A DNA stretch of 64,000 nt from an uncultured Thermodesulfobacteriota bacterium (GTDB lineage: Bacteria > Desulfobacterota > Anaeroferrophillalia > Anaeroferrophillales > Tharpellaceae), in contig CAYWGC010000001.1 of NCBI GenBank assembly GCA_964457755.1, positions 128,332 through 192,331 on the forward strand. Direction: 5' to 3'. Position 1 is the first letter of the stretch. Every line of letters begins with the position of its first letter. This document shows positions 4,707-40,643 of this stretch, piece after piece. Both the position numbers and the translations under genes were made by a program. Under the pieces are notes generated by a model, which was given only the letters and a program-made list of their open reading frames with translations, ran no database searches and was not told where the DNA came from.

Positions 4707-5594
4707 ATGCCCAAAGAGGGAAAAAACAGACTCTTGTTGTCACTGAGTATTTTGCTGGTTCTTTCGGCTGGCTTGTTCACAGCCGTACCCGCCTGGACCG
4801 AGACCAATCTCTGCGCGGAATGCCATGAGGAGGTCAGTGCTGCTTTCACAAAGACCGTCCATGGTCGAGTTGGAATCAGCCATGATTTCGACTGCCAATC
4901 CTGCCATGGCAGCGCCGCAACTCACTTGAACGAGCCCTCCCGTAAAAATATTGTCTCTTTTGCTAAAGAGGCAGGACCGAGTGTTATCGAACAAAACCGG
5001 CGATGTCTGGAATGCCACGATAATACACCCCAAGTCGCCCTCTGGGAGATGGGAAGCCACAGCCGCAACGATGTTGCCTGTGTCAGCTGCCATTCGATTC
5101 ACAACCAGCGTTCCCAGGTTGATCAGCCAGCGGTTTGCTATACCTGCCACCGTTCGCTCCGCCTGACCGCGAACAAGATCTCGCATCACCCCATCACTGA
5201 AGGCAAAATTAAATGCAGCGACTGTCACAACAGCCATGGCACCCTTTTACCTAAGATGTTAGTGGAAGACAACATTAACCAACTCTGCTACCGCTGTCAC
5301 GCTGAAAAACGGGGGCCGTTTGTCTGGGAGCACCCACCGGTTGCAGAAAACTGCGCCACCTGTCATGAACCCCACGGCAGCCGCCATGAAAACTTGTTAA
5401 AAGAGAAGGTCGCCAACCTCTGCCAAGACTGCCATAATGCCGATCTCCATTCCAGCCGGGCTTACGATGCCAAAGCGGGTTTTTCCAGTGCTGGCCGAGC
5501 CCGCAGCATCGGCTTTGCCGGACGCTCCTGTTTGAACTGCCACGGCAACATTCACGGCAGCACCCAATTTGACCAACGCAGCTTCACAAGATAA
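4707..5594 (+). CDS. mtrA-like: Periplasmic decaheme c-type cytochrome, MtrA/DmsE/PioA family
   Basis: 295 aa. Signal peptide. Ten CxxCH motifs (CAECH, CQSCH, CLECH, CVSCH, CYTCH, CSDCH, CYRCH, CATCH, CQDCH, CLNCH) with the dense spacing typical of MtrA. RBS GGAGGAGGG upstream. Immediately followed (12 nt) by a large porin gene. Confidence 0.85.
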   Translation: MPKEGKNRLLLSLSILLVLSAGLFTAVPAWTETNLCAECHEEVSAAFTKTVHGRVGISHDFDCQSCHGSAATHLNEPSRKNIVSFAKEAGPSVIEQNRRCLECHDNTPQVALWEMGSHSRNDVACVSCHSIHNQRSQVDQPAVCYTCHRSLRLTANKISHHPITEGKIKCSDCHNSHGTLLPKMLVEDNINQLCYRCHAEKRGPFVWEHPPVAENCATCHEPHGSRHENLLKEKVANLCQDCHNADLHSSRAYDAKAGFSSAGRARSIGFAGRSCLNCHGNIHGSTQFDQRSFTR

Positions 5595-5605
5595 GGGAGG
5601 CAGAG

Positions 5606-19773: not shown

Positions 19774-21264
19774 ATGACCTTTCTTGATCGCTTCAACACC
19801 ACCATTCGCAGCAACCACTCCCTGATCAACGTGGTAACTTACGAAGAGGACCGCTTTCTGACGATGATGGCTGAATCCCCGCTTTTCAAAGACAAAAACA
19901 TTATTATCTGGGATCTCGGGGATGGCTTTAAATCGATCAAGGGAGAGATGAGCGGCATCAAAAACAAGGATCGTCCCGACCCCATCAACTGCCTGCAGGA
20001 GATTAGTAAATTCAGCGGCAACACCATCTTTATTTTGCGTGATTTCCATCTCCATTTTCGTGAAAGTATTATTCTACGCTCCTTAAGAAACCTTAACCAT
20101 GACTTGCAGTTTACCAAAAAAACCATCATCTTGACCACGCCCAGCGCGACCTTGCCGATAGAGTTACGGGAAGATGTCTGCCAGATCGAGTTGGAACTCC
20201 CTGGCTACTATGAAATTGAAAAAAAGCTCGACAGTGTCGTTGCCAGCGCCGCCCAAGGTAAACCCCCAACCCCCCAACTCAAAGAGAAGATTGTTGAATC
20301 AACCCTCGGGCTCTCAATGGTCAACATTAAGAACCTTTTTTCCAAAATAATCATCACTAACGGAGCCGTTGACGAACGCGCCATAGAAATCATCCTGCAG
20401 GAAAAACGCGGCATTATTAAAAAAGGAGAAATTTTAGAATTTTTCCCGGTTCAAGAGAGCCTTAACGATATCGGCGGCCTCGATAATCTCAAAGGCTGGC
20501 TCCGCAAGCGCAGTCAGGTTTTCACCCACAAAGCCAAAGACTACGGCCTGCCATCACCTAAAGGTATTCTTATTATCGGAATCCAGGGAACCGGCAAGAG
20601 CCTCACCGCTAAAGCGACCGCCGGACTCTGGAAATTACCGTTATTACGGATGGATCTGGGCAAGGTTTTTGGAAGTTTACTGGGTGAATCTGAACAGAAC
20701 CTGCGGCAGGCAATTCACTTGGCCGAAACTATCTCACCCTGCATCTTGTGGATCGATGAACTCGAAAAAGCTTTCGCCGGAAGCTCCGGTTCGGCCGGCG
20801 ACGGCGGCACTTCGGCTCGGATCTTAGGAACCTTTCTCACCTGGATGCAGGAAAAGACTAAACCGGTTTTCATCATAGCTACCGGCAATGATGTCGCCCA
20901 GCTTCCCCCTGAACTGATGCGCAAGGGCCGTTTTGATGAGATTTTTTTTGTTGACCTGCCTTCAACCTCTGAACGACAAGCAATCTTTAAGGTTTTGCTG
21001 GAAAAGGTACGCCCCGTCATCCGGCAGTTCAATCTTGAGAAACTGGCAGATGCCACAACAGACTACAGTGGGGCTGAGATCGAACAGATTATTTACGATG
21101 CTATGTTTAACGCTTTTGACGATAACCAACGCGAATTCACGGAAGCTGACATTCTCTTAAGCGTTAACGAAATTATCCCGATATCACGCTTGATGAGCGA
21201 AAAAATCGATGGACTTAAGGCCTGGGCAGCCCAACGCACCCGTAAAGCTAACAGTGAATCATAA
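19774..21264 (+). CDS. AAA+ ATPase of the Ycf46-like class (N-terminal domain of unknown function plus a classic C-terminal AAA module)
   Basis: Walker A GIQGTGKS; Walker B ILWIDELEKAF; sensor-1 IATGN; arginine finger GRFDEIFFVDLP. 496 aa. GGAG RBS. Confidence 0.8.
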   Translation: MTFLDRFNTTIRSNHSLINVVTYEEDRFLTMMAESPLFKDKNIIIWDLGDGFKSIKGEMSGIKNKDRPDPINCLQEISKFSGNTIFILRDFHLHFRESIILRSLRNLNHDLQFTKKTIILTTPSATLPIELREDVCQIELELPGYYEIEKKLDSVVASAAQGKPPTPQLKEKIVESTLGLSMVNIKNLFSKIIITNGAVDERAIEIILQEKRGIIKKGEILEFFPVQESLNDIGGLDNLKGWLRKRSQVFTHKAKDYGLPSPKGILIIGIQGTGKSLTAKATAGLWKLPLLRMDLGKVFGSLLGESEQNLRQAIHLAETISPCILWIDELEKAFAGSSGSAGDGGTSARILGTFLTWMQEKTKPVFIIATGNDVAQLPPELMRKGRFDEIFFVDLPSTSERQAIFKVLLEKVRPVIRQFNLEKLADATTDYSGAEIEQIIYDAMFNAFDDNQREFTEADILLSVNEIIPISRLMSEKIDGLKAWAAQRTRKANSES

Positions 21265-21297
21265 TTACTTATTAAAACTGCTCAAGGGAGAACAACC

Positions 21298-21675
21298 ATG
21301 TCCCACTTCACCAAGATAAAAAGTAAAATCGCTGATAAGGTTTTTTTAAAAAAAGCGATCAGCGACATGGAGCTAGAGTACCAGGAAGGTAAATTGAAAG
21401 CCAAGGGTTGGCTCTGGAAAAAAGAGAAAGCCGATATTGTCATCCCGACTAAAAGCGGTTTCGATATCGGTTTTCGTTTCAATGGTGAAACCTTTGATGT
21501 AGTCGCCGACTGGGACTCAATCAAGGACGTCGACCAGACAACCTTCATGGATACCCTGAACCAACGCTATGCTTATAATGTTGTCAAAAACACTTTGGCA
21601 CAACAGGGCTTTCTCCTCACCAACGAGGAAGCCGAAGCGGGAAATATAAATATGACATTAAGCCGGAATATTTAA
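21298..21675 (+). CDS. DUF1257 / Ycf35-like protein (125 aa)
   Basis: The N-terminus MSHFTKIKSKI... and the central DIGFRFNGE...FDVVADWD motif resemble Ycf35-family proteins; this is recollection of the family, not a database search. Confidence 0.55.
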   Translation: MSHFTKIKSKIADKVFLKKAISDMELEYQEGKLKAKGWLWKKEKADIVIPTKSGFDIGFRFNGETFDVVADWDSIKDVDQTTFMDTLNQRYAYNVVKNTLAQQGFLLTNEEAEAGNINMTLSRNI

Positions 21676-21692
21676 CAGGAGATCACCAAATC

Positions 21693-21890
21693 ATGGAAAA
21701 AATAGATATTACGATCGGCAAAGATGGCGCCGTAGATCTGCAACTAGCTGGTTTTGAGGGTGGAAAGTGCCTTGAGGTTACCAAAATCCTGGAAACCCTG
21801 CTCGGCAATGAGATCGTTGAACGAAAGATGACCAGCGAATACTACACAACCAAGAATGTTCAGTTGGAAGAAAAACTACCCGGCTCCTGA
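21693..21890 (+). CDS. DUF2997-like small protein (65 aa)
   Basis: MEKIDITIGKDGAVDLQLAGFEGGKCLEVTKILETLLG...TSEYY matches the pattern of DUF2997 proteins, which usually sit next to DUF1257 genes. Confidence 0.5.
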   Translation: MEKIDITIGKDGAVDLQLAGFEGGKCLEVTKILETLLGNEIVERKMTSEYYTTKNVQLEEKLPGS

Positions 21891-21988
21891 AAAAAAGAGT
21901 TGTTTTGAGTAACCCCTAAAAAAGAACATTACTCTTTTTTGAATACACATCTTTTAGCGCTCATAAAAAACAAAAAATCAAAAAAAAC

Positions 21989-22016
21989 TTGACAACCTAA
22001 AATGTTTAGCTATAAT
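21989..22016 (+). promoter_or_regulatory. Near-consensus sigma-70 promoter (TTGACA-16 nt-TATAAT) with an A-rich UP-like tract
   Basis: TTGACA at 21989-21994 and TATAAT at 22011-22016, about 75 nt upstream of the 22094 ORF. Confidence 0.6.
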
Positions 22017-22093
22017 ATATAATGTAATATTTTCCAGCTGATACACTATTTGCCAGCCTAAAAGAGACAGGATCACCCAAGCACTAAATTCAC

Positions 22094-22528
22094 ATGCCTC
22101 CGGAGTGGACAATGACCCCCAGCCAAGCCCGAATTAACAGTTGCAACTACGGCTATCAAGACGACAAATCAACCGACATTTTTGAAATGATCCAGAGTAT
22201 TCCGACCTTGACCAAGATTGGGGCAATCTGCTTAGTTCTAGGCAAATGCTTCGGCATCATGGCAATCCCAGCGGCCTTCATCCCCGCTCTTAATATTTTA
22301 GTCGTACCTTTAATCTTAGTTTGGGGATCTTTTGTTTTCATCGCTATTGCCCTCTGCTCAGTGGATCACTTCAAAAAGAAAAAACTTGAAACTCAAAATG
22401 AGAAAAAAGATATTATAGCATCAATGATTGAAGAGACTCCTGAATTACGAGATCAGATTGTCGATGAATTTGAGCAAGTTGGTATGGGGTCTGCTGTCAT
22501 CGTACCTTTGGCTGTCGGTCAACGTTAA
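22094..22528 (+). CDS. Small membrane protein (two TM helices), hypothetical
   Basis: Hydrophobic segments LTKIGAICLVLGKCFGIMAIPAAF and ILVVPLILVWGSFVFIAIALC; followed by a terminator. Confidence 0.4.
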   Translation: MPPEWTMTPSQARINSCNYGYQDDKSTDIFEMIQSIPTLTKIGAICLVLGKCFGIMAIPAAFIPALNILVVPLILVWGSFVFIAIALCSVDHFKKKKLETQNEKKDIIASMIEETPELRDQIVDEFEQVGMGSAVIVPLAVGQR

Positions 22529-22903: not shown

Positions 22904-24301
22904 ATGGCTGGATTACAATGGCAAAAACTGAAGCTTATGGCCGGGCTGCTATTGGGGTGTTGCTTGCTGACAACATCCGGATTTGCCCTGGAGTTGGGTG
23001 GCGCCGATATCTCAATCAGGAGTACCACCGAATATCGACTGCAATGGTCTGACAGTCCGGCGAATTACATGATTGTCGACGAGGATCAGGACCAGGATAT
23101 TTTTGAAACCCTGGCGATTGATGTTAACTGGCAAGACTTAGGCCTGATCTTCTCTTCGATGGCCACCTACGTTAAAGATCTGGACGGCACCCGCCAAGGC
23201 TCAATCTTCCAGGACTACACTGATAGCCGTGGTAGCCATCGGCAGGATTTTCAATGCTATTACGCTTATCTGGAAAAAACCGGCCTCTTTAGCAACGATC
23301 TCACGGTCAGAGCTGGCCGCCAATATGCCTACGGCGCCGAGACCGTACAGTTTGACGGGGTCTGGGCCCATTACGACCGCCCCCAATGGCTGGGACTGGA
23401 AGTTGAAGCTTTTGGCGGCCTCGCGGTTCAGCACTACAGTGACCTTGGACCGGATGGCATTGGCGGAGCAAATGTTAGGATTCGCCCGCTGCCGGGCCTC
23501 TCTCTTGATTTAAATACTGTGATTTTTGAAGAGACCTCATGGGAGTCCTCAATCTACTGGCAGCCTTCTGAACTCTGGAAATTTCGCAGCCGCATCGCCT
23601 TCATTAATGATCATACTCGTTTTTTCGACAGCGGCCTTGAAACCACTATCGCGGCAACCGGCACTGTCCTCGATTTCTCCTTCTATCGGCGTTTCGCCAT
23701 CTCTTCAGAGGCCGACTTCCTTTTCGACTTCAGTTATACCCTCGATGAAGCTTTAAACTCGGAGATGAATCGCCTCTATCTGATGCAAGAACAGGGTTAT
23801 CTCGAATTTGATGTCCGCATCAGCCAACCGATCTCTATTGTCAAAGGACTTACCCTCTTCGGTCGCTACACCAATCGCAGTCTCGCTCATGGCGAGGATG
23901 AAAACCTCTACAACACCGATTTTGAAAGGGTAACCACCGGTTTTGACCTTGATCAGTGCTTTGGTTGGCAGGGTTTTCGCTGTAGTGCCGGATTCAGCCA
24001 ATGGTGGGAGGATCGAGATCAGTTTTACGAAGGGGAGTCAACCTCCTGGTTTGTCGATCTCGAACAGGAGTTATTCCACAGGCTTGAACTTGAAGCTGGC
24101 TACTACCATAAAACCGAGAATGTCAACAGCCTCCTCGAAGATGAGGCCTCAACCAGCTACCGGGCGGCGATCGCCTATCGACTTTGCGACCACTCGCGCG
24201 TCGAGATCTCTTATGAATACGCGCAAGATGATTTCTACGAAGATGAGCTGGGAGTTGACTACATTAACTCTCTAACTATCTCACTTGATCTTAATTTCTA
24301 A
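22904..24301 (+). CDS. Outer-membrane beta-barrel protein (465 aa), putative porin of a porin-cytochrome complex
   Basis: Signal peptide; beta-strand periodicity; C-terminal ...ISLDLNF; directly upstream of two multiheme cytochrome genes. Confidence 0.6.
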   Translation: MAGLQWQKLKLMAGLLLGCCLLTTSGFALELGGADISIRSTTEYRLQWSDSPANYMIVDEDQDQDIFETLAIDVNWQDLGLIFSSMATYVKDLDGTRQGSIFQDYTDSRGSHRQDFQCYYAYLEKTGLFSNDLTVRAGRQYAYGAETVQFDGVWAHYDRPQWLGLEVEAFGGLAVQHYSDLGPDGIGGANVRIRPLPGLSLDLNTVIFEETSWESSIYWQPSELWKFRSRIAFINDHTRFFDSGLETTIAATGTVLDFSFYRRFAISSEADFLFDFSYTLDEALNSEMNRLYLMQEQGYLEFDVRISQPISIVKGLTLFGRYTNRSLAHGEDENLYNTDFERVTTGFDLDQCFGWQGFRCSAGFSQWWEDRDQFYEGESTSWFVDLEQELFHRLELEAGYYHKTENVNSLLEDEASTSYRAAIAYRLCDHSRVEISYEYAQDDFYEDELGVDYINSLTISLDLNF

Positions 24302-24353: not shown

Positions 24354-25253
24354 ATGAGTATGCATAAGAGAAAATTATTCTGGGTTGGGCTTATGGCAAT
24401 CGCCCTTGGTGCCCTGGTTCTGGGAGCCTGCAAATCTTCGGTAGGCCTCAAATTCAGCCACCGCTCCCACATTGTCGAACAGGAAGCCACCTGTGACCAA
24501 TGCCACAAAAAAGATGCCAACGGCAATCTGGCTGCCGCCACTATGGCTGACTGCCAGGAGTGCCACGAGATCAATGTCAACGAGCCCTCTAAGGAGTGTC
24601 TTCTCTGCCATACACCGGAAAGTGCGGCCAAGGATTACGAGATCGAGAGAGCTGGAAAACCGGCAAATTACACTGACCTGATTTTCAGTCATAAGACTCA
24701 TACAGACCTTGCCTGCGACTCCTGCCACACCTCCATGGGCCAGAATTACAACCTTAAAAACGGTCCCTTTATGGTCGTTTGCCTCAACTGCCATAAGAAT
24801 CAGGGCGCTCCCATGGAGTGCGAAGCCTGCCACACTGTCTTAAGAGCTGATCAAGCTCCGGCAAGCCATCATCAAGACTGGGAAGCCAAACATGGCTTTG
24901 CCAGCCGTTTATCGGACTCCTGCTCCTACTGCCACCCGAACCGTCAGGCTTTTTGCGAAAAGTGCCACCAGACCGAAAAACCAAAAGATCACAAGTTTGG
25001 CTGGAAAACCACCGGCCACGGGGTTGAAGCGACCCATGATCGCCGCACCTGCGCCACCTGTCACTCGGCCGGCTACTGTGTCGATTGCCACAAACACCAG
25101 AAACCGGTCTCCCACTTTCGCGGCGACTGGATGGCCTATCAACGTGACAACGGTCACGGCGAGGCGGCCCGACGTAATTTCCGCAGCTGCAACGTCTGTC
25201 ATGAGACGGGTGAGTGTATGCAGTGTCATAAAGGTATAATTTTAAGGAAATAA
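24354..25253 (+). CDS. Dodecaheme c-type cytochrome, lipoprotein (12 CxxCH in about 300 aa)
   Basis: Lipobox LVLGAC after MSMHKRKLFWVGLMAIALGA. Twelve CxxCH motifs: CDQCH, CQECH, CLLCH, CDSCH, CLNCH, CEACH, CSYCH, CEKCH, CATCH, CVDCH, CNVCH, CMQCH. Confidence 0.85.
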   Translation: MSMHKRKLFWVGLMAIALGALVLGACKSSVGLKFSHRSHIVEQEATCDQCHKKDANGNLAAATMADCQECHEINVNEPSKECLLCHTPESAAKDYEIERAGKPANYTDLIFSHKTHTDLACDSCHTSMGQNYNLKNGPFMVVCLNCHKNQGAPMECEACHTVLRADQAPASHHQDWEAKHGFASRLSDSCSYCHPNRQAFCEKCHQTEKPKDHKFGWKTTGHGVEATHDRRTCATCHSAGYCVDCHKHQKPVSHFRGDWMAYQRDNGHGEAARRNFRSCNVCHETGECMQCHKGIILRK

Positions 25254-25340
25254 TATTTTCGCTGCAATGAGTTTTGTTTTTTATAAATTAAAATATTCTT
25301 TTTACCCTCACAATATTTTTCAACCCTTGGAGGTAGCTCG

Positions 25341-28300
25341 ATGAAAAAAATTTACCCCATTATCCTGGGAGCCTTCTTACTGGTCCTCACCCCTCTGCTG
25401 GTCGGTGCAACGCACCCCCCGGTAACCCTTTACGACGGTCACGGTAATCGCATCATTGATCAACTTGATGACAGCGAAATCGTTACTGCGGCCGGCGGCT
25501 CAACTTACAAAGCCGGGCCGCCCTACAGCCCCAAACAGACCTGCGGCAAATGTCATGACTACCACGAAGTCACCAAAGCCTACCATTTTCGTGAAGGCGC
25601 CGGTGAAGACGGCCAAGGTATCAGTGATACCTGGAGCAGTGAGAATCAGGACAACCCGCTCTACAAATACCTGGCCAATGCTTATGGACATCTTTTGAGC
25701 CCGGGTCAATTTGGAGCGTGGTGACCGCCGTCTTACCGCCAGGTGGCGGTAAAAAAAGAGCGCGGCCACTTCCTTGATCCTTTTACCTCTGAAGATAAAC
25801 CTTACTTTTTTGACATGGGAACCGCAGATCACATTGCCACTTGTGAATCTTGCCATCCCGGTGGTGGTCCGGTTGAAGGTATCGTCAATATGGATGGGAC
25901 GATGACCCAGTTTGACGACCCCAGTCTGGCACCCGAACACTCTTACGATCGTGACTTTTACGGTTACAGTTCCAACGATCTCACCATGGCTATTTATGGT
26001 TCTGATTCGATTTCGGAAACCATGGCCAATATCGGCGACCCCAAACCCCACGACTGGTCCAAATCCGGCGTCGTTGAAGCCGACTGCCTGCTCTGCCACA
26101 TCGATCCAGAAAGTGCTTACAGCTACCGAGCTGCTGATGGTCTTAAAGTGCAGTCCTTCCGCCCCCGGATGATGATTTTCGCGGAACGCGACGAAAATTT
26201 CAAGGCCCAGAAAATTTCTTTTGGGATGCCAACCAAAGTTGGCCTCGAAAACAGTTCGGCCCTCTACTACAGTGACAGCCTGCAACGCATGGGTCGACCG
26301 ACACCAATGATGGCTTTAGGTCAACTACCAAAAGAGATTGTCGGCGAGATGATGCAGATGTGGGTTGACGGTCTTGCCGGAATTGAAGCCCAGGGCATCA
26401 ACCTGCCTTTCGCCCTTTACGGCCAGAATATCAGTAAAATCTGGGAAACCAACGGCATGCTCAAGGCAGCCTACTGCGCCAACCCCAACGGCGTCATGGA
26501 TGAAATGGGCCGCCTCCAGGGAGCTCAAGCTGCAATTGGCTCACTCTTTCAGGGATTTCTCCAATTCATGATTGGCAAAGGTTTATTACCGCCGGATGCC
26601 GACATGAATATACTAATGGGCCTTTTCTTTAATGATTTCATCTACGCCTATCAGCTGCAATTTCCCAACGATATGCTTTTGCCGATTCCTTACGCTCTTA
26701 GAGCTTACGAACCCGGCAAATTCTACACTAACTGGGACAGTTTTCACGCCTCAACCCGTGACTATATCCGCTCCGGCCTGATCGAAGGCGAGGGCATTCC
26801 CTATGTCGGCAAAAACGGTACGGAATTGAGTGCCACCATGTACGGCATGGGCAAGATTATGCAGGGCGACTATACTTATGTCAACCAGGCAACCGGTCAA
26901 CTTGATCTCTCTCTGGTCATTCAGGACCTCCAGGAAGGTAAAATTCCGGAAGGTGAGATCAATCCGGTACTCCATGATTATCTGCCGAGTTTCTTCAACT
27001 ATATGCCCTCCGGCGAACTCATGGGCCTCGACTTTAACCAGGACGGGGCTCCAGTTACCTATCTGCGGATAGATCGCGATGGTGATGACTGGACACCAAA
27101 AGTCTTTTACAATCTCGCTGATATCGGGGCTGACGGGGTTCTCCCCATGGCCGAGATGTTTGGTGGCAGCAAAGACCGAGAAAGTTATAAATGGGTAAAA
27201 GTTTGTGGTCAGTGTCATGTCATGACCAAGGATCACGGCAACAGCGAATGGACCAAAGCCCGTCTCTACAATATGGGTTTCCCGGCCGATTATGTCAAAA
27301 ACGGTCACTACGTCAATTTTACCGATGATCAGGAAGATCGCGGCTACGATGTTCATATGTCGGGTAAATGGATGGGTTGCGGCAGCTGTCATCTGCGCGA
27401 TAACGGATCTTTGAACGACAAGCATAATTTTCTAAAAGGGGTCGATACGGCCCACATGGTGCGTAACGATCTTGATGCCAACCCCAGGGTCAAAAGCTGT
27501 GAAGGTTGTCACCTTGCAGGCGAAGGGCACGGCAGCAACCCAGCCCTCAAACATGAAGAAGTTTTCGGCGAAAGCACCGGTCGCCATCTCTCTGAAGTCT
27601 CCTGCCAGGCCTGTCATGTACCCTTCAGGAAAACCTGGCGCTTTAGAGCTTTTGATGACACTTTAGGCTACTACGCCAACTTTGATAACCTCATGGGTTA
27701 CAACATTCTGCCCGGCGGCGATGGCGCAATCATGGCCTTTCCCTCACCAGCTTATGCAATCTCACCGGTCTACTCCTGTTCCCCGGGCTATGGCATTCCT
27801 CACTTCAATATGCTTGCCAACCACATTGAAGCCGATGGCCAGGGCATTGAATCTATGGATGTCCAGTCGCAGATGGTTGACTACTTCTTTATGGACGGTG
27901 AGTCCGATCCCGGCCAGATGGTCAACGGCATGCCGACCAACTTTAAATTTGACTTCTGGAAATATTTTCTTCAGGCCGGTTACGAAGGCATGAAGGCGAT
28001 GGGTGTCCCCCTCGAGTATACCGATCTCACCGATAACGAAGTTTTTCCGCCGCTCTACTATGCAAACGGCATCAACGGTTATCCGCAGGTGGTTACTGGC
28101 AATCCGATCACGGTTATGACCTGGGTCGACACCAACCCCCAACCGGATGCTGACATGAGTGAGATGGCTTATAGCGGTGCCCGTATTCTCTATCTCAAAG
28201 AGATGAATGCGATCATTAGAGATTACAAACGCCCAACTAAACTGGGCATGGTTAACCCTATGGATCTGGCGATGATTCCGGCTAATGACCCGACCTGGGC

Positions 28301-29360
28301 TGAAAATCCCTATGTCGGACGCGTAATCCTTAAAGAGAGTGGTTACGTTATCTTTGACCATACCGGCGACATGTTCCCCGATATCTGGTGGGACGAAGAT
28401 GTCAGAGCGGTCCAGGAGTCCCTCAAAAAAGTCCTTATCGCTGAAGGCGGCACCGACCCCAACCCGGTAATGTTTCTTGCAGCTCACTACTTCTCCGACA
28501 GCCATGGGGTGCAACCTAAAGAGTACTCTTTAGGGGCCAAGTCCTGTAATGACTGTCATGGTGACGTAACCAAGGATGCCGGGGCCCTGCGGGTTACCGA
28601 CCGCATCATCTCTTATCTGCCTTGGGCTCCACCCTGGTTTAGAGATGAAAACCGGGCTATGCGTTACGACCCTGAACAGGGTATGATCCCAGCCAACCCC
28701 GACGGTCTCTTCATTGTTGATGGCGAAATCGACTACGTCCAAGCAATCGAAGCCAACGGCATGCGTTTTCTTGGCGCCAGAGAGAAAGATATTCTCAAAC
28801 TCAGTCACCATCATGCAGAAGCCCTCTTCACTTTAGCTTCCGAAGGAACGGTTACCGGTGACTCAATCTTCGGCGTTGACCCGACCCTGCTGTCTCCTGA
28901 AGAAAGAGCCACGGAATATGCTAAACAGGTCGTCAACGGCCCCTGGATGGATAAAACCCATTTCTACATCCCGCAAGAGCTTAAACCACAACTTGCCGGT
29001 TTAGGTTTTGTTGTCGGCGGTAAAGAGGATGTCTACTTAAGTGGCCGCGGCTTTGCTCAAGCCTACACGCTGCGCTATGAACTTATGGCTCCGCATGAAG
29101 TAGATAACGCAGCCGTCAGGACACATGCTTTACCGGCTGCCATTATCCGCCTGCCCTTTACCGGTAGCACGCCAGAAATCTGGACTATGGGTGAACACGA
29201 CACCTTCTTTAAACTTGACACCAACGCCGTTATTGTCGGCCACCAGAGCGCCTACGTTCTCGTCAAGGTCAATAACCCTGGCGAGTATGTCGCGGTCGAA
29301 CAGGGAGCCGGCGGTGGCAACGCTCTGCTTTATGACCTCTGGGGGGCTTTCTTCAAGTAG
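25341..29360 (+). CDS. Very large octaheme c-type cytochrome (about 1340 aa if read through). The N-terminal signal-peptide/monoheme segment (25341-25721) and the 1205-aa heptaheme body (25743-29360) are in the same frame, separated only by TGA at 25722-25724. Either a selenocysteine or read-through gene, or a recent pseudogene.
   Basis: Frame arithmetic: (25743-25341) is divisible by 3. The first segment has the signal peptide MKKIYPIILGAFLLVLTPLLVGA and CGKCH. The second has CESCH, CLLCH, CGQCH, CGSCH, CEGCH, CQACH and CNDCH but no export signal of its own. Haem density is low, implying large non-haem domains. Confidence 0.6.
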
Positions 29361-30883: not shown

Positions 30884-33012
30884 ACCGTTCTTTTCGTGGA
30901 GATGCCAAAATCCCGGGCGCTTGCGGCAAGGGCAATATCACCAGCCAGTGAAAGAGTTTTGATCAGAGTCGGAACTGCCAAACAACTAAACCAATCCGGC
31001 CAGAAGCACGGATTTTTCAAATCCACAACCATAATCCGAGCTCCACGTAAAATCTGAGTTTCACGAATCTCCTCTATTTCAGTCAGTAACATTGGCAAAA
31101 ATCGCAGACAGACGGCTACAACAAAGGCGATGCGGTAGGGCAGGAAATGGGATAGCGTGCGCATGATTCGAGGCTGGGAATTGGACGAAATGAAAATCAT
31201 TCCCGGCCAGAAGGCGAGAAACAATTGCCAGGCCGTCTGTAATCCCGGGATTATCCCTTCCGGCAGACCAAAACGGAACCCATATAGTAAAACTACAAGC
31301 ACCGCCTGCCAGAAAAAAAAGACCACACTTTTGCGCATAAAACGCAACGGTTTAGGGCCTGAAACAATTATCAATCCAAAATTCATGGCTGTCAACCCCG
31401 CCAACAGAACTGGAGACCGGGCGGCAAAGGCTGCCATTGAAAGAGAAAGAGAGAGGATGAGCATCAGGCCGGTACCGAGAGATCTCTTTTGCACAGATGG
31501 TGGAGTTGCAATAAGGGTTTTTGCAGAGATCGGGCCGGGCTTTTTTTGACTATGGTTTAATTTCATTTCAGAAAGATCAATTACCCGGTCAGCCCAATTG
31601 GCAACGCTGTCAGTGTCATGAGAAGTCCAGATAATGGTGATCTCATTGGCATCTGCAATCTCTGTGACGAGCTCCATTATTTTGCGGGTTCGTTGGCGGT
31701 CGAGGCCGGCAAAAGGATCATCAAGTAACAAAATTTCCGGTTTGCCGGCCAAAACCGCAGCAAGCCCGACAAGATGTTTCTGTCCGTAACTGAGCAAATG
31801 TGGCGAAGCTGTGGCAAGGTGGTCCAGTTCCAGCCGTTCCAGGAGAGTGTTTACATGCTCAGATATCTGCATCTCGCTGAGGCCATTGCGGCGGGCGGAG
31901 AATGCGACTTCGGCAAAAACTGTGGTTTCAAAAATCTGCTTTTGCGGATCTTGAAAAAGTAACGAGACCCGGCCGCGCAGATCTGACATCCGGGGAGTAC
32001 GCCCAAAGATCTCGATGCTTCCGGTAAAAGGTTGAACCAACCCGACCAAGCTTCTCAATAATGTCGTTTTACCGGAGCCATTGGGTCCGCAAACAGCGAT
32101 TTTTTCGCCGCGAACAAGATCAAAAGAGAGGGCGGGTATAACCTGCCCATGATGACCATTTTCAAAACGGAAACCTTTAACCCTGATTATACACTCAGCA
32201 TCTGCCCGGGGTTGGTGAAGGATGTTGTCCTTCTGCGACTGTTTGTCGCGAAAAGAAGAGCTCTCTACGACTTTATTAATCTCTGAACCGGACGAATTGG
32301 AAAGATTTTCAGAAACCCTGGCGCGATCGTAAAGGGCTCCTTTCTCATCCAGATACCAGCTTTGATCGACAATTTCTTGGAGAAGTTCTGACCGATGATC
32401 ACAAACTAATACAGTCCGGCCTGATTTTTTCAGATCTCGAATCAGCGCAAGTGTCTTCTCTCGTCCTTCATGATCAAGCTGAGTCATGGGCTCATCGAAC
32501 ATTACAAAAAAAGGGTCCATTACCATAATTCCAGCCATGCAGGCCCGGTACTGCTGCCCCATGGAGAGACTGTCCACCGGCTGGCTAAAAGGCAGTTTAA
32601 GCCCGACTTGTTCCAGGGCTTGTTCCACTTTCAGGGGCATTTGCAATGGGTCAACCTGATTATTTTCCAAGCCAAAGGCCACATCTGACCCGAGAGTGGC
32701 ATTAAGTAACTGGGTTCTGGGATTCTGCATAATCAAACCGGCAAAACCCTGATCGTGGCCGGCATAATTCGAACTTACCCGCCGGATTTCACCGGTTTGT
32801 CGACTTCCCGTCGGCAGAAGTCCCCTGAGAGCCAGCATTAAGGTCGTTTTGCCGGAACCGGTTGGACCATGCAAAAAGTAACAATGCCCGGCTTTAATCT
32901 GCAAAGAGATGTCACGCAAAACCCAGTCTGAGCTACCCGGATAAGCGTAGGAAAATCGATCCAGAGAAATGATGGTCGATGATTGTTTAGAAACGATATT
33001 CGACCCCACCAT
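30868..33012 (-). CDS. Fused ECF-type ABC transporter: two ATPase domains (EcfA-EcfA') plus a C-terminal EcfT/CbiQ-like transmembrane domain
   Basis: Two Walker A motifs (GPTGSGKTT and GPNGSGKTT), two LSxGQ signatures and two Walker B motifs, then about 250 aa of TM helices. Start uncertain (33012 or 33096). Confidence 0.75.
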   Translation of the reverse strand: MVGSNIVSKQSSTIISLDRFSYAYPGSSDWVLRDISLQIKAGHCYFLHGPTGSGKTTLMLALRGLLPTGSRQTGEIRRVSSNYAGHDQGFAGLIMQNPRTQLLNATLGSDVAFGLENNQVDPLQMPLKVEQALEQVGLKLPFSQPVDSLSMGQQYRACMAGIMVMDPFFVMFDEPMTQLDHEGREKTLALIRDLKKSGRTVLVCDHRSELLQEIVDQSWYLDEKGALYDRARVSENLSNSSGSEINKVVESSSFRDKQSQKDNILHQPRADAECIIRVKGFRFENGHHGQVIPALSFDLVRGEKIAVCGPNGSGKTTLLRSLVGLVQPFTGSIEIFGRTPRMSDLRGRVSLLFQDPQKQIFETTVFAEVAFSARRNGLSEMQISEHVNTLLERLELDHLATASPHLLSYGQKHLVGLAAVLAGKPEILLLDDPFAGLDRQRTRKIMELVTEIADANEITIIWTSHDTDSVANWADRVIDLSEMKLNHSQKKPGPISAKTLIATPPSVQKRSLGTGLMLILSLSLSMAAFAARSPVLLAGLTAMNFGLIIVSGPKPLRFMRKSVVFFFWQAVLVVLLYGFRFGLPEGIIPGLQTAWQLFLAFWPGMIFISSNSQPRIMRTLSHFLPYRIAFVVAVCLRFLPMLLTEIEEIRETQILRGARIMVVDLKNPCFWPDWFSCLAVPTLIKTLSLAGDIALAASARDFGISTKRTVWSGD

Positions 33013-34969
33013 AAATCGTGCGGCCGGGCTGAGGTAAGCCGTAACTCTCTTCGTAATCTTCGTCAAAAAGATTGTCAGCACCAGCGTAAATTTCAAATCC
33101 GGAATTTAAGATGGGTTGGCTGAATTTGAGATTAACTACTGTAAAATTATCCAACTTCTTCTTTTCCAGAGGATCTTTATTATCAGCATCATAGTAATAT
33201 TGGTCGGCAATATATTGCATAGAGGCATAAGCAGTCAGACCGAAACTGAAACGGTAACGTCCTTCAGCGTTCACCGTCCATTCGGGACGATACTGCATCT
33301 CATCGCGACCAGAGTCGTCCGACTTATCTTCAGTATCAAGCCAGGTAACAGCCAGGCGGAGCATCATTTGCTCAAGGGGACGCATAGTCAGATCGGTTTC
33401 GATCCCGGCAAATTCCAAATCCTGATAATTACGGTTCTCATCACTGTCATCCTTCTCAATGAAGTCTTCAGCATCTATTATAAATCCGGTTACGGCAAAA
33501 GTCGTTCCTGCGGGTAGTTGTTGTTCGATTCCGACTTCGTAGTGCAGAGTGACCTCAGTATCAAGCTCGGGATTGCCGGAATCGCCGTCATAAAGCTGCT
33601 TAATTGAAGCAAAACGAATTTTCCGGGCATGATTGAGACGCAGTTGAGTGGTCTTGGTAAGATCCAGAGAAGCCCCGATTAGATAAGAAAAATCATTGTC
33701 GTTACCACCGTCCCGTTCTTGAAAATGATGTCCGTAACCGGCTACAACTTCAACTCGATCAGCGATTTTCTGCTCATATTCCAAAGCTATCGAATAGACC
33801 TGGATATCATGATCGCTAGAAAAATTTTCCGCCTTATTAGACTTATTGATACTGTAGCCGTCAGCATCCCAATTGTCATTAGTGGCATTCAAACCCAGGG
33901 TCACGACAGAGTTTTCGTTTATCTCGTAATTTATCTGGGTGCTTACACCGAATATTTCTGTATCTGAATCCTGTTTATAAGCCCCATTTTTTTTTCGGGT
34001 CACATAGCTGTCGTCATCATAACGACTCTCTTTCACGTCTGACTGGCTGTAAAACCCCCAACCGCGAAAGCTTAATGGGCCGTCGGTTTTATGGTTAAAG
34101 GACAATTGTAACGAGTTGGTTGAGAAATCGTCAATGCGTTCATATTTAACTTTTTTGGTAAAGGGATCACTCTTATCGTAGTTGGTTACCGGGGGTTTTC
34201 CGTTTTCTCCAGTCTGAAAACCCAGTACCAGACCGAGTCGGGTTTGATCACTCAACTGATAGCCGAGATTACCGAAAAGGCTGCTCCGTTCTCGATCACT
34301 GTTTTCACGCCAGTTACCGCTCTCCTCTTTGGTTTCCTGAAAATCATCGGAAAGCCTTAATTTATTGCGCTTAAAATGGTTGAGATTGGCATAAAAATCA
34401 AATTTTTCTTGCCCACCACTAAAACTAGCTTCACCAAGATAGCGACCACCCTCACCCACCTCTCCACTCATTGCGGCATGGGTTCCTTTCTGTCCACCCT
34501 TGGTGATGATATCGATAGCCCCACCATTGCCTCCGGGGCCATAAAGCACCGAACTACCACCGGCAGTTACCTTGATCTCAGCAATAATTGAAGCCGGAAT
34601 ACGGGTTGGGTCAAACTGTCCATCAAAGGTATCCCGGATCAAGATGCCATCAAGAAATAATTGAACATGACGGGTGCGAAAACCCCGGATATCGATTCTT
34701 GGGGTACCTTCTGCACCTTCTCTAACAACCAGTCCAGGAACCATCTGTAGTGCTTCATCAAGGGTCCGCGCACCCTGATCTTTTATCTCCTGAGATGTAA
34801 TCCGGTAGACTGTACCGACATTCTCGACCCCGCTTTCCGGTGCGGCTGAGACCACAATCTCTCCCAAGCGAAAAGCTTTTGTCGACGAATCATTTTCGGC
34901 GCAGTAAGATAATCCCACCGTGACAACCACAATAAACAGAGCAAACACCCCACGAAACAGATATTTCAT
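32987..34969 (-). CDS. TonB-dependent outer-membrane receptor (BtuB/CirA-like)
   Basis: Signal peptide; TonB box region (IVVSA); plug-domain motifs (ALQMVPGLVV, IDIRGF); 22-strand barrel length; C-terminal ...GGVEYRF. Confidence 0.85.
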   Translation of the reverse strand: MKYLFRGVFALFIVVVTVGLSYCAENDSSTKAFRLGEIVVSAAPESGVENVGTVYRITSQEIKDQGARTLDEALQMVPGLVVREGAEGTPRIDIRGFRTRHVQLFLDGILIRDTFDGQFDPTRIPASIIAEIKVTAGGSSVLYGPGGNGGAIDIITKGGQKGTHAAMSGEVGEGGRYLGEASFSGGQEKFDFYANLNHFKRNKLRLSDDFQETKEESGNWRENSDRERSSLFGNLGYQLSDQTRLGLVLGFQTGENGKPPVTNYDKSDPFTKKVKYERIDDFSTNSLQLSFNHKTDGPLSFRGWGFYSQSDVKESRYDDDSYVTRKKNGAYKQDSDTEIFGVSTQINYEINENSVVTLGLNATNDNWDADGYSINKSNKAENFSSDHDIQVYSIALEYEQKIADRVEVVAGYGHHFQERDGGNDNDFSYLIGASLDLTKTTQLRLNHARKIRFASIKQLYDGDSGNPELDTEVTLHYEVGIEQQLPAGTTFAVTGFIIDAEDFIEKDDSDENRNYQDLEFAGIETDLTMRPLEQMMLRLAVTWLDTEDKSDDSGRDEMQYRPEWTVNAEGRYRFSFGLTAYASMQYIADQYYYDADNKDPLEKKKLDNFTVVNLKFSQPILNSGFEIYAGADNLFDEDYEESYGLPQPGRTIYGGVEYRF

Positions 34970-37124: not shown

Positions 37125-38603
37125 ATGAACTTTGATTTTTTCGCACTCTCAGTAGTTATCTACTACGGCCTCCTTTTTTTGCTGGCAATCTTCTGTCTGC
37201 ATCGTTTTTTTCTGGTTCGCCTCTACTACAAAACCCGGCGCCATGATCCCGCGCTGCCGCTTATAAAGTCCCACGACTGGCCTCAGGTTACGGTACAGCT
37301 GCCACTCTTTAACGAAAAATATGTCGCCGAACGACTCCTGCGACAAACTGCAGCCTTAGATTATCCGAATGGCAAACTGGAGATTCAGGTTCTTGACGAT
37401 TCAACCGATGAGACCACTGCATTAATCGCTGACATAGTCGCTGCACTACAAAAAAAAGGCCACCGGATTGTCCATCTGCACCGGAACGACCGGCGCGGGT
37501 TTAAGGCTGGAGCTCTGGCAGCCGGACTCTCCTGCTGCCGAGGCGAAATGGTGGCTGTTTTTGATGCTGATTTTCTGCCTTCAAGCGATTTTCTACGACG
37601 TACCGTGCCCTACTTTAAAGAGCCCGATATCGGCATGGTTCAAGCCCGCTGGGAGTTTATCAATCGTGACTACTCCTGGTTGACGCGGGTGCAGGCGATG
37701 CTTTTAGACGGTCATTTTGTCATCGAGCATGCGGCCCGTAACCGTTCCGGACGTTTTTTCAACTTTAACGGCACGGCCGGGATCTGGCGTAAAACCGCGA
37801 TTGCCGATGCTGGCGGTTGGCGCGCCGACACCCTGACTGAAGATCTTGATTTAAGTTATCGGGCTCAGATGCGGGGCTGGCAGTTTCTTTATCTCAAAGA
37901 CCTGACCGTTGACAGTGAGTTACCGGAAGATATGAATGCCTTTAAAACCCAGCAACATCGCTGGGCCAAGGGTTCGGCCGAAACCCTTTTAAGATTGGCC
38001 AAGCCGCTCGTAAAGAGCTCGCTGCCGCTCCCGATAAAGATCGAAGCCTTTTTCCATATGGCCGGAAATTTCGCCTACCTACTGCTCCTGGCCCTGGCTC
38101 TGGTTATGTATCCTTCGCTGATCGGGCGTTTCAACCTGCCCTGGCAGCACCTGTTAATTATTGACGTACCCCTGTTTTTGGCCACCAGCTGCGCGGTCTC
38201 ACTCTTTTTTCTGGTTTCGCAATGGGAAAACGGCCACTATTGCCGCCGCACCCTGATCACCCTGCCGCTGGCTCTGGCGGTCGGTGTCGGCCTCGCGATA
38301 AATAACGGAAAAGCGGTGTTTGAAGCCCTCTTCAACTACCACACCCCTTTCATAAGAACCCCGAAATTAAACCTATTAGAGAGTCAAAAATTAAGTCCCG
38401 CATATCGCCAACCGCTCTATATCGTACCTGTCCTGGAGGTTTTTGTCGGCCTCTACTTTTGCCTGATTATGGCGGTCGCCATCAACCTTGACAAATTTGC
38501 ACTTCTCCCTTTTCTGGCTCTCTTCGCCTGCGGCTTTTTTGGTAATGGCATCTTGAGCCTGATTCACAGTAAGCGCCGCATCTGGAGATGGCAGAAAGCA
38601 TGA
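37125..38603 (+). CDS. Membrane-embedded processive family 2 glycosyltransferase (cellulose/hyaluronan-synthase-like)
   Basis: DDSTDET, DADF, TED and QQHRW (QxxRW) motifs flanked by TM helices. Confidence 0.75.
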   Translation: MNFDFFALSVVIYYGLLFLLAIFCLHRFFLVRLYYKTRRHDPALPLIKSHDWPQVTVQLPLFNEKYVAERLLRQTAALDYPNGKLEIQVLDDSTDETTALIADIVAALQKKGHRIVHLHRNDRRGFKAGALAAGLSCCRGEMVAVFDADFLPSSDFLRRTVPYFKEPDIGMVQARWEFINRDYSWLTRVQAMLLDGHFVIEHAARNRSGRFFNFNGTAGIWRKTAIADAGGWRADTLTEDLDLSYRAQMRGWQFLYLKDLTVDSELPEDMNAFKTQQHRWAKGSAETLLRLAKPLVKSSLPLPIKIEAFFHMAGNFAYLLLLALALVMYPSLIGRFNLPWQHLLIIDVPLFLATSCAVSLFFLVSQWENGHYCRRTLITLPLALAVGVGLAINNGKAVFEALFNYHTPFIRTPKLNLLESQKLSPAYRQPLYIVPVLEVFVGLYFCLIMAVAINLDKFALLPFLALFACGFFGNGILSLIHSKRRIWRWQKA

Positions 38604-39658
38604 CAAACAACGTCAAGAACCTGCTTGAAAACTGCACAGAGTGCAACCTCTGCGTCGAGGATTGTGACTTTTTAACGAACTACGGCAACCCTAAAGAGAT
38701 AGATGCGCAATTAAGTAATTCCTTAAATCCGAAGATTCCCTACTCCTGTTCTCTCTGCTCCGCCTGTGAAAGCATTTGTCCAAACGACGTCCCCATTAGT
38801 GAGTATTTTTTAACCCGCCGCCAAGAGATCGTCGCAACCGGATCAGGCCCTCTACCTGCCCATCGGGGCCTCATCTTTTATGAACGGCTGGTCTCATCAT
38901 CACTCTTTACCGCTTATTTTCTGCCAACCGGTGCCAAGAGGGTACTTTTCCCCGGCTGTGGGGCAATCGGCAAGGCCCCGCAAACAATCAGGAAACTCTA
39001 TACTAAATTACAACAAGAATCACCGGAACCTCTGGGCCTGGTACTCGATTGCTGCCTTAAAATATCCCACGATCTCGGCCGCCAGAAGTTTTTCGAAAAA
39101 GAGTTCTCCATTTTAAAAGAGCGTCTTAAGAGCGCCGGGATCACTGAAGTAATCACCTTGTGTCCCAGCTGTACTGAGGTTTTTCGAAACTACTCCGATT
39201 TTCTCGTGACGCCCGTCTACCATCTGCTGACGACTAGCGCAGATAAAAAATTGCGGCCTGTGGCCTGCTACTCGGTGCACGACGCCTGCGTCATGCGCCG
39301 AGATCAAAAAACCCAAACCGCAGTCCGCCAGATCATAACCCAAAACGGAGCGACACTGGCTCCACTACCCCGGGAAGGCAAAGAGACAGTCTGCTGTGGT
39401 GAGGGCGGGGCCGCCTGGTGCATCGACAAGGATTTGCCGGACCGCTACCGTGAACGACGCTTACAGGGTTTAATTGAAACCATGATCGTCTACTGTTATG
39501 CCTGCCGGGATTTTCTAGATCCGGAAGATAAATTGGGAATGCTGCACATCCTCGAACTGGTCTGCGGACGCGAAAAACGCTACCCCAACTGGCGCACTTG
39601 GCTTAATCGTCGGGCTCTGAAAAAATATGTCAAAAAGCTGGTGTCAAGGCAACCTTAA
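38588..39658 (+). CDS. Fe-S oxidoreductase with an N-terminal 2x[4Fe-4S] ferredoxin motif and two Cys-rich CCG domains (HdrD/GlcF/GlpC-like)
   Basis: CTECNLCVEDC...CSLCSACESICP, then CPSC...C and CCGEGG/CYAC cysteine clusters. Confidence 0.7.
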   Translation: MAESMTNNVKNLLENCTECNLCVEDCDFLTNYGNPKEIDAQLSNSLNPKIPYSCSLCSACESICPNDVPISEYFLTRRQEIVATGSGPLPAHRGLIFYERLVSSSLFTAYFLPTGAKRVLFPGCGAIGKAPQTIRKLYTKLQQESPEPLGLVLDCCLKISHDLGRQKFFEKEFSILKERLKSAGITEVITLCPSCTEVFRNYSDFLVTPVYHLLTTSADKKLRPVACYSVHDACVMRRDQKTQTAVRQIITQNGATLAPLPREGKETVCCGEGGAAWCIDKDLPDRYRERRLQGLIETMIVYCYACRDFLDPEDKLGMLHILELVCGREKRYPNWRTWLNRRALKKYVKKLVSRQP

Positions 39659-39719
39659 AGAGTCATCAGATATGAAAATTTTTATCAAACAGCTTAATAA
39701 TTAATCTGGTAGTGTTAAA

Positions 39720-40643
39720 ATGTCCTATATTTCGACTCTGTTTTTACTTATATCAGCTTGTTTATTGCCTTTTCCGACTCAGGCCGCTGCAACCATGAAA
39801 CTTTACTCAGCTGAGAAACTCAAAACTAAAATCGCTGAACCGGAACTGGTTGTCGTCGATTGCCGCAACGCTTATGCCTATCGCAAAGGCCATATAAAAG
39901 GTGCTATTCACCTTGATTCAGGCTGCAGTGGCCCCCTGGTACATAAACTTGGGAAAGTCCCTTGTACGCTTAAGAGCCCTGGGGAGCTCTTAAGCCTGCT
40001 CACGCAAAAGGGACTCTGTCCAGATCAAGATATCATTGTCTATGGCGATCACAACTCCTGGGGTGCCGAGGGCCGCCTCCTCTGGCTTTTGCAGAAACTG
40101 GGCTACAGTAAAATTGCCCTGCTTAATGGTGGTTATGATCACTGGCAGCAACTTTCGGAACCGACGGCTGCCCTCTTTGCCGACCACAAAGAGCCCTGCC
40201 AAGAACAGCTTATGCAGAACCTTACTGTCAGCACACTCGAAAAGGCTAAAATCGGTGCCGACGCTCTTTGGCAACTTTACCGACAGGGTAATCTCATCTT
40301 TCTTGATGTCCGCAGTCAGGCTGAATATGATGGCGAAATCCTCTATCGCGAAGAACGCGGCGGTCATCTACCGGACGCCCTGCACTTTGACTGGAAAGAT
40401 TTCTGGAACGATGACTATACCCTCAAAACCAAAGCCGAGCTCCAGGCCCGGCTCACTCATGCAGGCCTGCCCCTACCGGAACAGACCGGAGAAAAGCTGA
40501 TTGTCACCTACTGTACCGGCGGTATCCGCTCCGGTTACGCCTGGTTTGTCTTAGACTGGCTCGGCTATCCTCAAGTCGAAAATTACGACAACGGCTTCTG
40601 GGAATGGGCCGCATCTCCGAATCTACCACTCCAACACCAATAA
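39720..40643 (+). CDS. Secreted tandem-rhodanese sulfurtransferase (thiosulfate/3-mercaptopyruvate sulfurtransferase-like)
   Basis: Signal peptide. Two rhodanese domains: the first inactive-type (CRNAYAYRKGHIKGAIH), the second with an active-site Cys loop YCTGGIRSG. Confidence 0.8.
   Translation: MSYISTLFLLISACLLPFPTQAAATMKLYSAEKLKTKIAEPELVVVDCRNAYAYRKGHIKGAIHLDSGCSGPLVHKLGKVPCTLKSPGELLSLLTQKGLCPDQDIIVYGDHNSWGAEGRLLWLLQKLGYSKIALLNGGYDHWQQLSEPTAALFADHKEPCQEQLMQNLTVSTLEKAKIGADALWQLYRQGNLIFLDVRSQAEYDGEILYREERGGHLPDALHFDWKDFWNDDYTLKTKAELQARLTHAGLPLPEQTGEKLIVTYCTGGIRSGYAWFVLDWLGYPQVENYDNGFWEWAASPNLPLQHQ

Follow-up and report, generated by a model that had tools for sequence, protein, structure and literature searches.

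A UGA codon inside a multihaem cytochrome c gene of Thermodesulfobacteriota is very probably read as selenocysteine

Does an in-frame TGA in the DNA of an uncultured Thermodesulfobacteriota bacterium end one gene, or does it lie within another, far longer one? The stretch that we analysed (hereafter the window) is 64 kb long, and the codon occupies positions 25722-25724. An earlier reading of the sequence alone described two open reading frames (ORFs) that share a frame and are separated by this TGA and a further 18 nucleotides (nt), and the coordinates are as it gave them. According to the sequence and the ORF list, the 127 amino acids (aa) encoded by ORF 25341-25724 begin like a signal peptide and include a single CGKCH motif. 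The 1205 aa of ORF 25743-29360 contain seven CxxCH motifs and lack a signal peptide. Translation through the TGA yields 1339 residues, close to the 1340 or so that had been estimated, with the expected context GQFGAW-U-PPSYRQVAV (U, selenocysteine) and with eight CxxCH motifs, which start at residues 68, 168, 249, 622, 680, 720, 755 and 1069. We conclude from comparative analysis that the UGA is very probably decoded as selenocysteine (Sec) within one secreted, eight-haem cytochrome c of 1339 residues. The predicted gene has the following parts.

25341..29360, + strand: predicted selenoprotein gene for a 1339-residue octahaem c-type cytochrome with Sec at residue 128; a single frame that ends with the stop codon TAG at 29358-29360
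25329..25333, + strand: Shine-Dalgarno (SD) sequence GGAGG, 7 nt 5′ of the ATG at 25341, as read from the sequence
25341..25409, + strand: signal-peptide-like N-terminus (MKKIYPIILGAFLLVLTPLLVGA/T), judged by eye from KK, a hydrophobic core and VGA
25542..25556, + strand: haem-1 motif CGKCH, residues 68-72, the sole haem motif 5′ of the Sec codon and invariant in 51 N-terminal stubs
25722..25724, + strand: predicted UGA selenocysteine codon, residue 128; the TGA is conserved across homologues
25743..25745, + strand: GTG, the apparently false start at which gene callers begin the 1205-aa 'gene'; it consists of the last two loop bases and the first base of the 3′ arm of a hairpin described below

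On a public contig whose sequence is the same as that of the window, the gene calls split the locus into proteins of 127 and 1205 aa, and relatives are treated in the same way. A search with the read-through protein found about 85 strong homologues (41-90 % identity), nearly all of which are 1170-1216 aa long and cover 88-90 % of the query. These homologues share a starting point, [M/L/V]A[A/V]K, shortly past the position of the TGA. The missing N-termini are annotated separately: a search with the 127-aa piece gave 104 clusters, all of 84-157 aa, and the ones examined end at the TGA. Clusters with a source name are labelled "hypothetical protein". Where locus tags are available, that of the stub adjoins that of the matching body (KAI46_10800/10805, ENN66_00770/00775 and GXO58_05615/05620). 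In an exhaustive search, a profile of the N-terminal module retrieved 233 representatives, and all those that cover the whole module are stubs of 116-153 aa ending at the TGA position. The signal-peptide type of N-terminal layout is common to all N-terminal stubs. The stubs, of about 130 aa, were left out as rows of the MAFFT alignment of about 1200 aa, across which they became stretched. In short, all pipelines sampled divide the gene into a 127-aa and a 1205-aa "hypothetical protein".

Taken at face value, these annotations describe two real genes, namely a 127-aa monohaem mini-cytochrome and a 1205-aa protein whose translation starts at GTG 25743 by termination-reinitiation. The unanimity of the gene callers speaks for this arrangement, as does a start codon, [GTA]TG, that is conserved at the position of the GTG. 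However, haem attachment to c-type cytochromes requires export, and the 1205-aa body, with seven CxxCH motifs and no export signal, is therefore not viable as a separate gene. Moreover, inspection of the sequence ahead of GTG 25743 revealed no SD-like motif, the GTG is inside a hairpin, and the 18 nt that link the ORFs are conserved as in-frame coding sequence. Finally, paralogues with Cys or Leu in place of the TGA, and a compact relative (P0309), are continuous single proteins. We regard two separate genes as highly improbable. As far as sequence comparison can tell, the two annotated "hypothetical" genes are one gene, which encodes a predicted eight-haem selenoprotein of 1339 residues.

The sequence-only reading had offered a recent nonsense mutation as its alternative, and a single window could not by itself have ruled out a mutation. 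We fetched 69 loci from species-representative genomes, 59 of which include the N-terminus. Nearly all are metagenome-assembled genomes (MAGs) of Thermodesulfobacteriota (Desulfobulbia, Dissulfuribacterales, Thermodesulfatator and Desulfuromonadaceae); one locus is from a strain listed as an isolate, "Thermodesulfobacteriota bacterium B35", and the others are from MAGs almost throughout. A stop occurs at exactly the same codon in 56 of the 59 loci, flanked by G[A/G]W and PPSYRQ[L/V]AAK, and this stop is TGA in all 56, never TAA or TAG. Counted by gene, orthologues and paralogues together, the species-representative genomes have TGA in 57 of 60, TGC or TGT in two and CTG in one. A 31-nt signature (TGG TGA CCN CCN TCN TAC CGY CAG KTG GCG G), present once in each Sec-type locus, retrieved 66 more metagenome contigs, and the frame is open on both sides of the TGA in 66/66. 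Together, the genome loci and metagenome contigs represent 105 distinct 210-nt contexts.

On either side of the TGA, codons vary synonymously while the protein sequence is kept, and the identical sequence is present on independent public assemblies. Since the same TGA recurs in a further 56 genomes at species level and in 66 contigs from metagenomes, these comparative data exclude a pseudogene or a sequencing error, to which we assign a negligible chance. A change in the genetic code does not account for the pattern either: TGA is the ordinary stop of 8 of the 31 family-supported genes in the window, so it has not been reassigned.

The three remaining loci have a sense codon at this position: TGC (Cys; P0083/L056), TGT (Cys; L057) and CTG (Leu). 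These genes are additional paralogues within MAGs that also hold a TGA copy. Thus, MAG S144_17 (L056, L058 and L064) and MAG M17 bin.112 (L044 and L057) contain Sec-type genes beside Cys-type or Leu-type paralogues. The Cys paralogues, which lack the hairpin, align with the Sec genes at the TGA, and this is the signature of a Sec/Cys pair. The proposed comparison of orthologues for Cys or Sec at this site therefore came out with TGA in 56/59 loci and Cys in two paralogues. As a separate observation, both kinds of sense-codon paralogue have extra domains: the Cys-type P0083 has a Cys-rich C-terminal repeat region of 1000 aa and the Leu-type P0067 has an extra N-terminal multihaem domain of 550 aa.

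Beginning 8 nt 3′ of the TGA is an 8-bp stem, TTACCGCC (25733-25740) paired with GGCGGTAA (25745-25752), with the loop AGGT (25741-25744). The sequence-only reading had pointed out this stem and its AGGU loop, and had likened them to a bacterial selenocysteine insertion sequence (SECIS). The stem exists as described. However, the conserved, functional part appears to be its inner 5 bp with the tetraloop, and not the whole stem, and we distinguish two elements.

25736..25749, + strand: conserved candidate SECIS core, a 5-bp stem CCGCC/GGCGG with the tetraloop AGGU, which begins 16 nt after the UGA; recognized by its invariance and synonymous entropy
25725..25765, + strand: extended, interrupted lower helix (CCGC..UCU / AGA..GCGG around the core), predicted by RNAfold

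Folding, as had been suggested, supports the larger structure: over 25725-25765, RNAfold gives a free energy of -21.5 kcal/mol (z = -2.4), and 4 of 200 shuffled sequences were equally stable. The 15-mer of the hairpin core occurs once in the window. No Rfam family was found in the window or in the fetched loci.

In an ungapped alignment of 57 sequences, the CCGCC/GGCGG stem and its flanks are invariant, save for four C-to-U changes that retain a G-U pair. The tetraloop is AGUU in 91 of the 105 contexts and AGGU in the other 14. This invariance extends to synonymous sites. The synonymous-codon entropy is approximately 0 at codons +4 to +8 (TAC, CGC/CGT, CAG, TTG and GCG), versus 0.8-2.5 bits in flanking codons. 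For example, Leu is encoded by six different codons at -9 and -10 and by TTG in 45/45 sequences at +7, while Arg uses six codons at +13 and is restricted to CGC or CGT at +5. The Cys paralogues have the peptide PVSFRQLAA, as compared to PPSYRQLAA in the Sec genes; the RQLAA part is identical, but they encode the shared residues with AGG, CTT and GCA, which destroys the hairpin. Given that these paralogues have a closely related peptide and no hairpin, the peptide is constrained as protein, and the codon choice in the Sec genes is constrained as RNA.

Evidence from base pairing is of a different kind. With the structure in its correct register, 86 % of cells pair, versus 30-56 % in slid controls, and the lower-stem pair 9-35 switches from C-G to U-A in nine sequences. 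RNAalifold reports only the invariant 5-bp stem. Because compensatory change is confined to the lineage-specific lower stem, our argument for a functional RNA rests on the conservation of synonymous sites and not on covariation.

More distant relatives suggest which part of the hairpin matters. The further subfamilies among the metagenome contigs have different residues ahead of the codon (...KSHYGGW-U, ...FGDDGAW-U, ...APGQFGAW-U and ...PGQFGFW-U), each followed by PPSYRQLAA. These divergent octahaem subfamilies, which are 25-33 % identical to the window protein and have eight CxxCH motifs in 1150-1530 aa, have the same TGA site, a U-PPS peptide and an AGUU-capped hairpin (loci L078, L085, L112, L126, L136 and L128). 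A still more distant stub (L072, 1461-1492) ends with GKW-TGA-CCG CCC TCT (W-TGA-CCGCCCTCT); an AGCC-AGUU-GGC hairpin begins there, and then the contig ends. The shared TGA, peptide and hairpin in the divergent subfamilies and the distant stub imply that the recoding site is older than the family of the window. Lower stems vary among lineages and are gone in the distant subfamilies, leaving the 5-bp stem and AGUU loop at -9.4 kcal/mol. Since these subfamilies lack a lower helix, the conserved core is a minimal stem-loop, and this stem-loop, at its fixed distance from the UGA, is by sequence comparison the likely functional element.

The core agrees with what is known of bacterial SECIS (bSECIS) elements. 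The constraints formulated by Zhang and Gladyshev (as summarised in PMC13188914) are a loop of 3-9 nt, an upper stem of 4-16 bp, 16-37 nt from the UGA to the loop, a G among the first two loop nucleotides (as a rule G[G/U]) and a minimum free energy of at most -7.5 kcal/mol. The hairpins of this family lie within all of these, with a 4-nt loop of A-G-[G/U]-U, a stem of 5-8 bp, a spacing of 16 nt and minimum free energies of -9.4 to -28.1 kcal/mol, and the resemblance claimed in the sequence-only reading thus holds up. If the canonical bacterial pathway is a guide, SelB with its Sec-tRNA(Sec) would attach to a minimal SECIS and supply Sec as the UGA enters the A site. This SECIS would comprise the CCGCC/GGCGG stem and the A-G-[G/U]-U loop, which in the lineage of the window would sit on the extended lower helix. 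The recoding mechanism itself would be canonical. The conserved TGA, the hairpin-less Cys paralogues, the hairpin core frozen at synonymous sites and the fit to bSECIS elements decide for Sec and against a nonsense mutation, and they support the original selenocysteine proposal.

Several observations weigh against this interpretation, or against the wider picture built on it. We did not find selA, selB, selD or a tRNA-Sec gene in the 64-kb window, where linkage is not expected, nor a tRNA-Sec gene in 44 fetched loci, and no second gene with an in-frame TGA was found in the window. When read-through relatives are aligned with Sec masked, the Sec column contains Cys (P0083 and P0321), His (P0309, a compact octahaem protein of 588 aa) or Met (P0401), as well as Leu (P0067), Ser (P0311) and Asp (P0402); the last three residues indicate that Sec is not universally essential. 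In the fixed register, covariation of the lower stem is modest, and the upper stem is invariant, so it offers no compensatory changes. Sequence searches of all PDB chains gave no match, and neither these nor profile searches reached octahaem tetrathionate reductase (OTR) or the selenoprotein MccSep; the likeness to OTR that is discussed below is at the level of the fold only. In strain B35 and its subclade, the predicted selenoprotein gene occurs alone, so that its pairing with the barrel and cytochrome genes introduced below is not obligatory.

Some of these observations would suit programmed read-through without Sec, in which ribosomes are slowed by the hairpin and the UGA is decoded by a suppressor or a near-cognate tRNA (Trp, Cys or Arg), so that the full-length protein is made but lacks selenium. 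A stable hairpin right after a stop codon can promote read-through in some systems, neither the window nor the loci yielded Sec machinery, and one paralogue tolerates Leu at the site. Nevertheless, TGA is exclusive in the 105 contexts, where an ordinary residue could more simply be had from a sense codon, and the paralogues without a hairpin have Cys. In addition, the loop sequence and the 16-nt spacing fit the SelB-type bSECIS consensus, and the host phylum is rich in selenoproteins, with Thermodesulfobacteriota ranking among the most selenoprotein-rich organisms (2026 selenoproteome review). We consider Sec-independent read-through improbable, and prefer decoding of the UGA as Sec.

What kind of protein would contain this Sec? 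Curated libraries yielded only weak matches, to the MtrC/MtrF pentahaem domain (residues 614-763) and to TIGR04315, the octahaem tetrathionate reductase family (residues 650-762; 33.7 bits versus a cutoff of 375, with a sub-region at 30.9 bits), and no match over the Sec region. A structure model, which covers the body from the codon after the TGA, has an OTR-like fold. A Foldseek search of the PDB returned nothing significant for the cytochrome body. On the strength of this model, the haem core is a predicted, much-expanded relative of OTR. In OTR, Lys56, the axial ligand of the catalytic haem 2, comes from a segment between haem motifs. The haem-1 and haem-2 motifs flank Sec128, which places it in the segment that would correspond to the source of Lys56. 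This position suggests that Sec128 may be at a haem active site.

If Sec is inserted, we tentatively favour a catalytic role, in which Sec128, as a selenolate and redox nucleophile, attacks a sulfur or selenium substrate at its S-S or Se-O bonds, in the manner of MccSep. MccSep, also called ExtKL (GSU2937-2936), is a pentahaem, periplasmic selenoprotein polysulfide reductase of about 49 kDa in Geobacter, whose Sec325 is near the C-terminus in an Ig-like domain, beside a Cys-ligated haem (Sci Adv 2026, PMC13510729). By this analogy, the substrate might be polysulfide, elemental sulfur or tetrathionate, and a 12-haem partner cytochrome could feed in the electrons. The present protein is not itself MccSep/ExtKL, in that it has no NF040886 match at E <= 0.01, has eight haems and Sec128, and has no conserved Cys outside the CxxCH motifs.

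Less likely than catalysis, and in our view doubtful, is that Sec128 is the distal axial ligand of a c-type haem (His/selenolate), probably haem 2. It would there replace the Cys, His or Met of relatives, in a barrel/cytochrome module that acts on insoluble or polymeric sulfur. The idea that the residue in the Sec column is always a haem ligand is weakened by the Leu, Ser and Asp of some relatives. If ligation were true, a His/selenolate haem would be the selenium analogue of the His/Cys haems in TsdA, SoxAX, DsrJ and MccSep. To our knowledge, no natural selenolate-ligated haem has been described.

Two genes upstream of the predicted selenoprotein gene form a cassette with it.

22904..24301, + strand: 465-aa predicted outer-membrane beta-barrel with about 22 strands and a C-terminal Phe (AF2 pLDDT 80; Foldseek matches to outer-membrane barrels at E 1e-11 to 1e-8)
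24354..25253, + strand: 299-aa cytochrome with 12 CxxCH motifs and a lipobox-like LVLGAC (coordinates of the public call; the mechanical ORF begins at 24285)

The barrel gene is directly upstream in 41/59 loci and the 12-haem cytochrome gene in 43/59, in the order barrel, cytochrome, selenoprotein gene; downstream genes are not conserved. The 12-haem cytochrome has weak matches to QrcA and cytochrome c7, and the barrel matched no Pfam or NCBIfam family. An Mtr-like cassette was considered and rejected, since MtrB is not among the best 50 Foldseek matches of the barrel, which appears to be a generic outer-membrane barrel. Some homologues of the large cytochrome have surface-type C-terminal domains (PF07603 and PF11617), the sole and indirect hint that it may be exposed on the outside of the cell. 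In one locus (L004), the barrel is 90 % identical to that of the window and the selenoprotein body is 67 % identical, while in another (L062) both are about 91 % identical. The cassette looks mosaic, which suggests recombination or replacement of the cytochrome gene.

Several further genes of the window are of note. Shortly before the cassette (19774-22528, + strand) come genes for an AAA+ ATPase (CDC48/FtsH-like), small DUF1257 and DUF2997 proteins and a 138-aa ORF, which are conserved at 92-95 % identity in seven close loci. A second outer-membrane cytochrome module, in mtrCAB order, is at 2405-7618 (+ strand). It consists of a 696-aa multihaem cytochrome (2405-4495), a DmsE/MtrA-family decahaem cytochrome that scores above the curated cutoff (4707-5594) and an MtrB/PioB-family barrel (5606-7618). 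This barrel weakly matches the GSU2204 '(seleno)protein' model, and no in-frame TGA was found in the module. A TonB-dependent receptor (32987-34969, - strand) has matches, far below cutoff, to selenoprotein-type TonB models (FCYXU, PUIUD and CU motif), and also has no in-frame TGA. At 38588-40643 (+ strand), the match of a 356-aa protein to NF045663 (the 'diclust_near_Sec' oxidoreductase/dicluster-binding protein) is confined to the C-terminal half of that model, and an adjoining double-rhodanese protein has weak matches to rhodanese selenoprotein models and ExtH; both have a flavour of sulfur/selenium trafficking, and neither involves a TGA. A 999-aa ORF (51923-54922, - strand) is an apparent fusion of an aldehyde:ferredoxin oxidoreductase-like part (residues 24-231) and an iron-containing alcohol dehydrogenase / lactaldehyde reductase domain (residues 618-994). 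Finally, a sigma-54-dependent activator at 58887-63941 (- strand) is unusually long at 1684 aa, with the activator module making up only the last ~480 residues.

The family is widespread in Thermodesulfobacteriota of sulfidic and hydrothermal settings. Literature searches uncovered no description of it as a selenoprotein, although absence there is no proof of absence, and the haem selenoproteins listed in the 2026 selenoproteome review are only ExtKL, the GSU2204 family and TIGR04315. It thus appears to be an unrecognised selenoprotein family, and an addition to the few multihaem cytochromes known as selenoproteins. That such proteins do real work was shown only recently, when MccSep was reported (2026) to be indispensable to Geobacter for respiring sulfur (PMC13510729). 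The present family would be a second such cytochrome family, much larger and without sequence relation to MccSep. Among bacterial genomes and metagenome contigs, well over 100 have the gene split in public annotation. Its correction would alter the predicted selenoproteome and the cytochrome inventory of the host organisms, and would mark out what is probably a terminal oxidoreductase that depends on selenium, as part of an outer-membrane cytochrome module. The 31-nt signature finds members of the family directly in DNA, and the listing of strain B35 (JBKIWM010000001.1, 2.95 Mb, with the gene near 1,737,000) as an isolate, and not a MAG, means that the prediction may be testable in culture.

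Three adjacent, co-oriented genes for a barrel, a small haem-dense cytochrome and a large multihaem cytochrome are also the plan of porin-cytochrome (Pcc/Ext/Mtr) conduits. By contrast with these conduits, the present barrel has no detectable relation to MtrB/PioB, the lipobox-like signal is on the small 12-haem cytochrome and not on the large one, the large cytochrome is a putative OTR-like enzyme and not a wire of the MtrC/OmcB type, and the cassette is absent in some genomes. With OTR itself (Shewanella, PDB 1sp3; TIGR04315), the protein shares eight haem motifs and, in the model, the fold of the haem core, but it is three times longer, with large beta-rich insertions. TIGR04315 reportedly contains proteins annotated in GenBank as selenoproteins, such as WP_331457571.1.

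MccSep (NF040886) is likewise a multihaem cytochrome c with one Sec, and past annotation broke its gene in two at the UGA. In both, Pro follows the Sec (DG-U-PT in MccSep and AW-U-PP here), Cys-type variants exist, a porin-like gene is nearby and the hosts are Desulfobacterota / Thermodesulfobacteriota sensu lato. For a long time MccSep was taken for a surface protein, but it turned out to be periplasmic (PMC13510729). The two differ in that MccSep has 5 haems, about 49 kDa and Sec325, as opposed to 8 haems, 1339 aa and a predicted Sec128 here.

As to the RNA, the gene resembles selenoprotein genes of the E. coli fdhF type in having an in-frame UGA with a stem-loop directly downstream, within the coding region. 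It shares with other bacterial genes that have a SECIS inside the ORF a short apical loop in which G precedes G/U, and the existence of Cys homologues. Relative to the bSECIS consensus, the 16-nt spacing is at the lower limit of the range. Unlike typical elements within ORFs, many relatives of the present one lack a lower helix, and the 14-nt core is conserved at the nucleotide level across subfamilies that are only 25-33 % identical in protein. This frozen core is a natural case of overlapping RNA and protein constraints.

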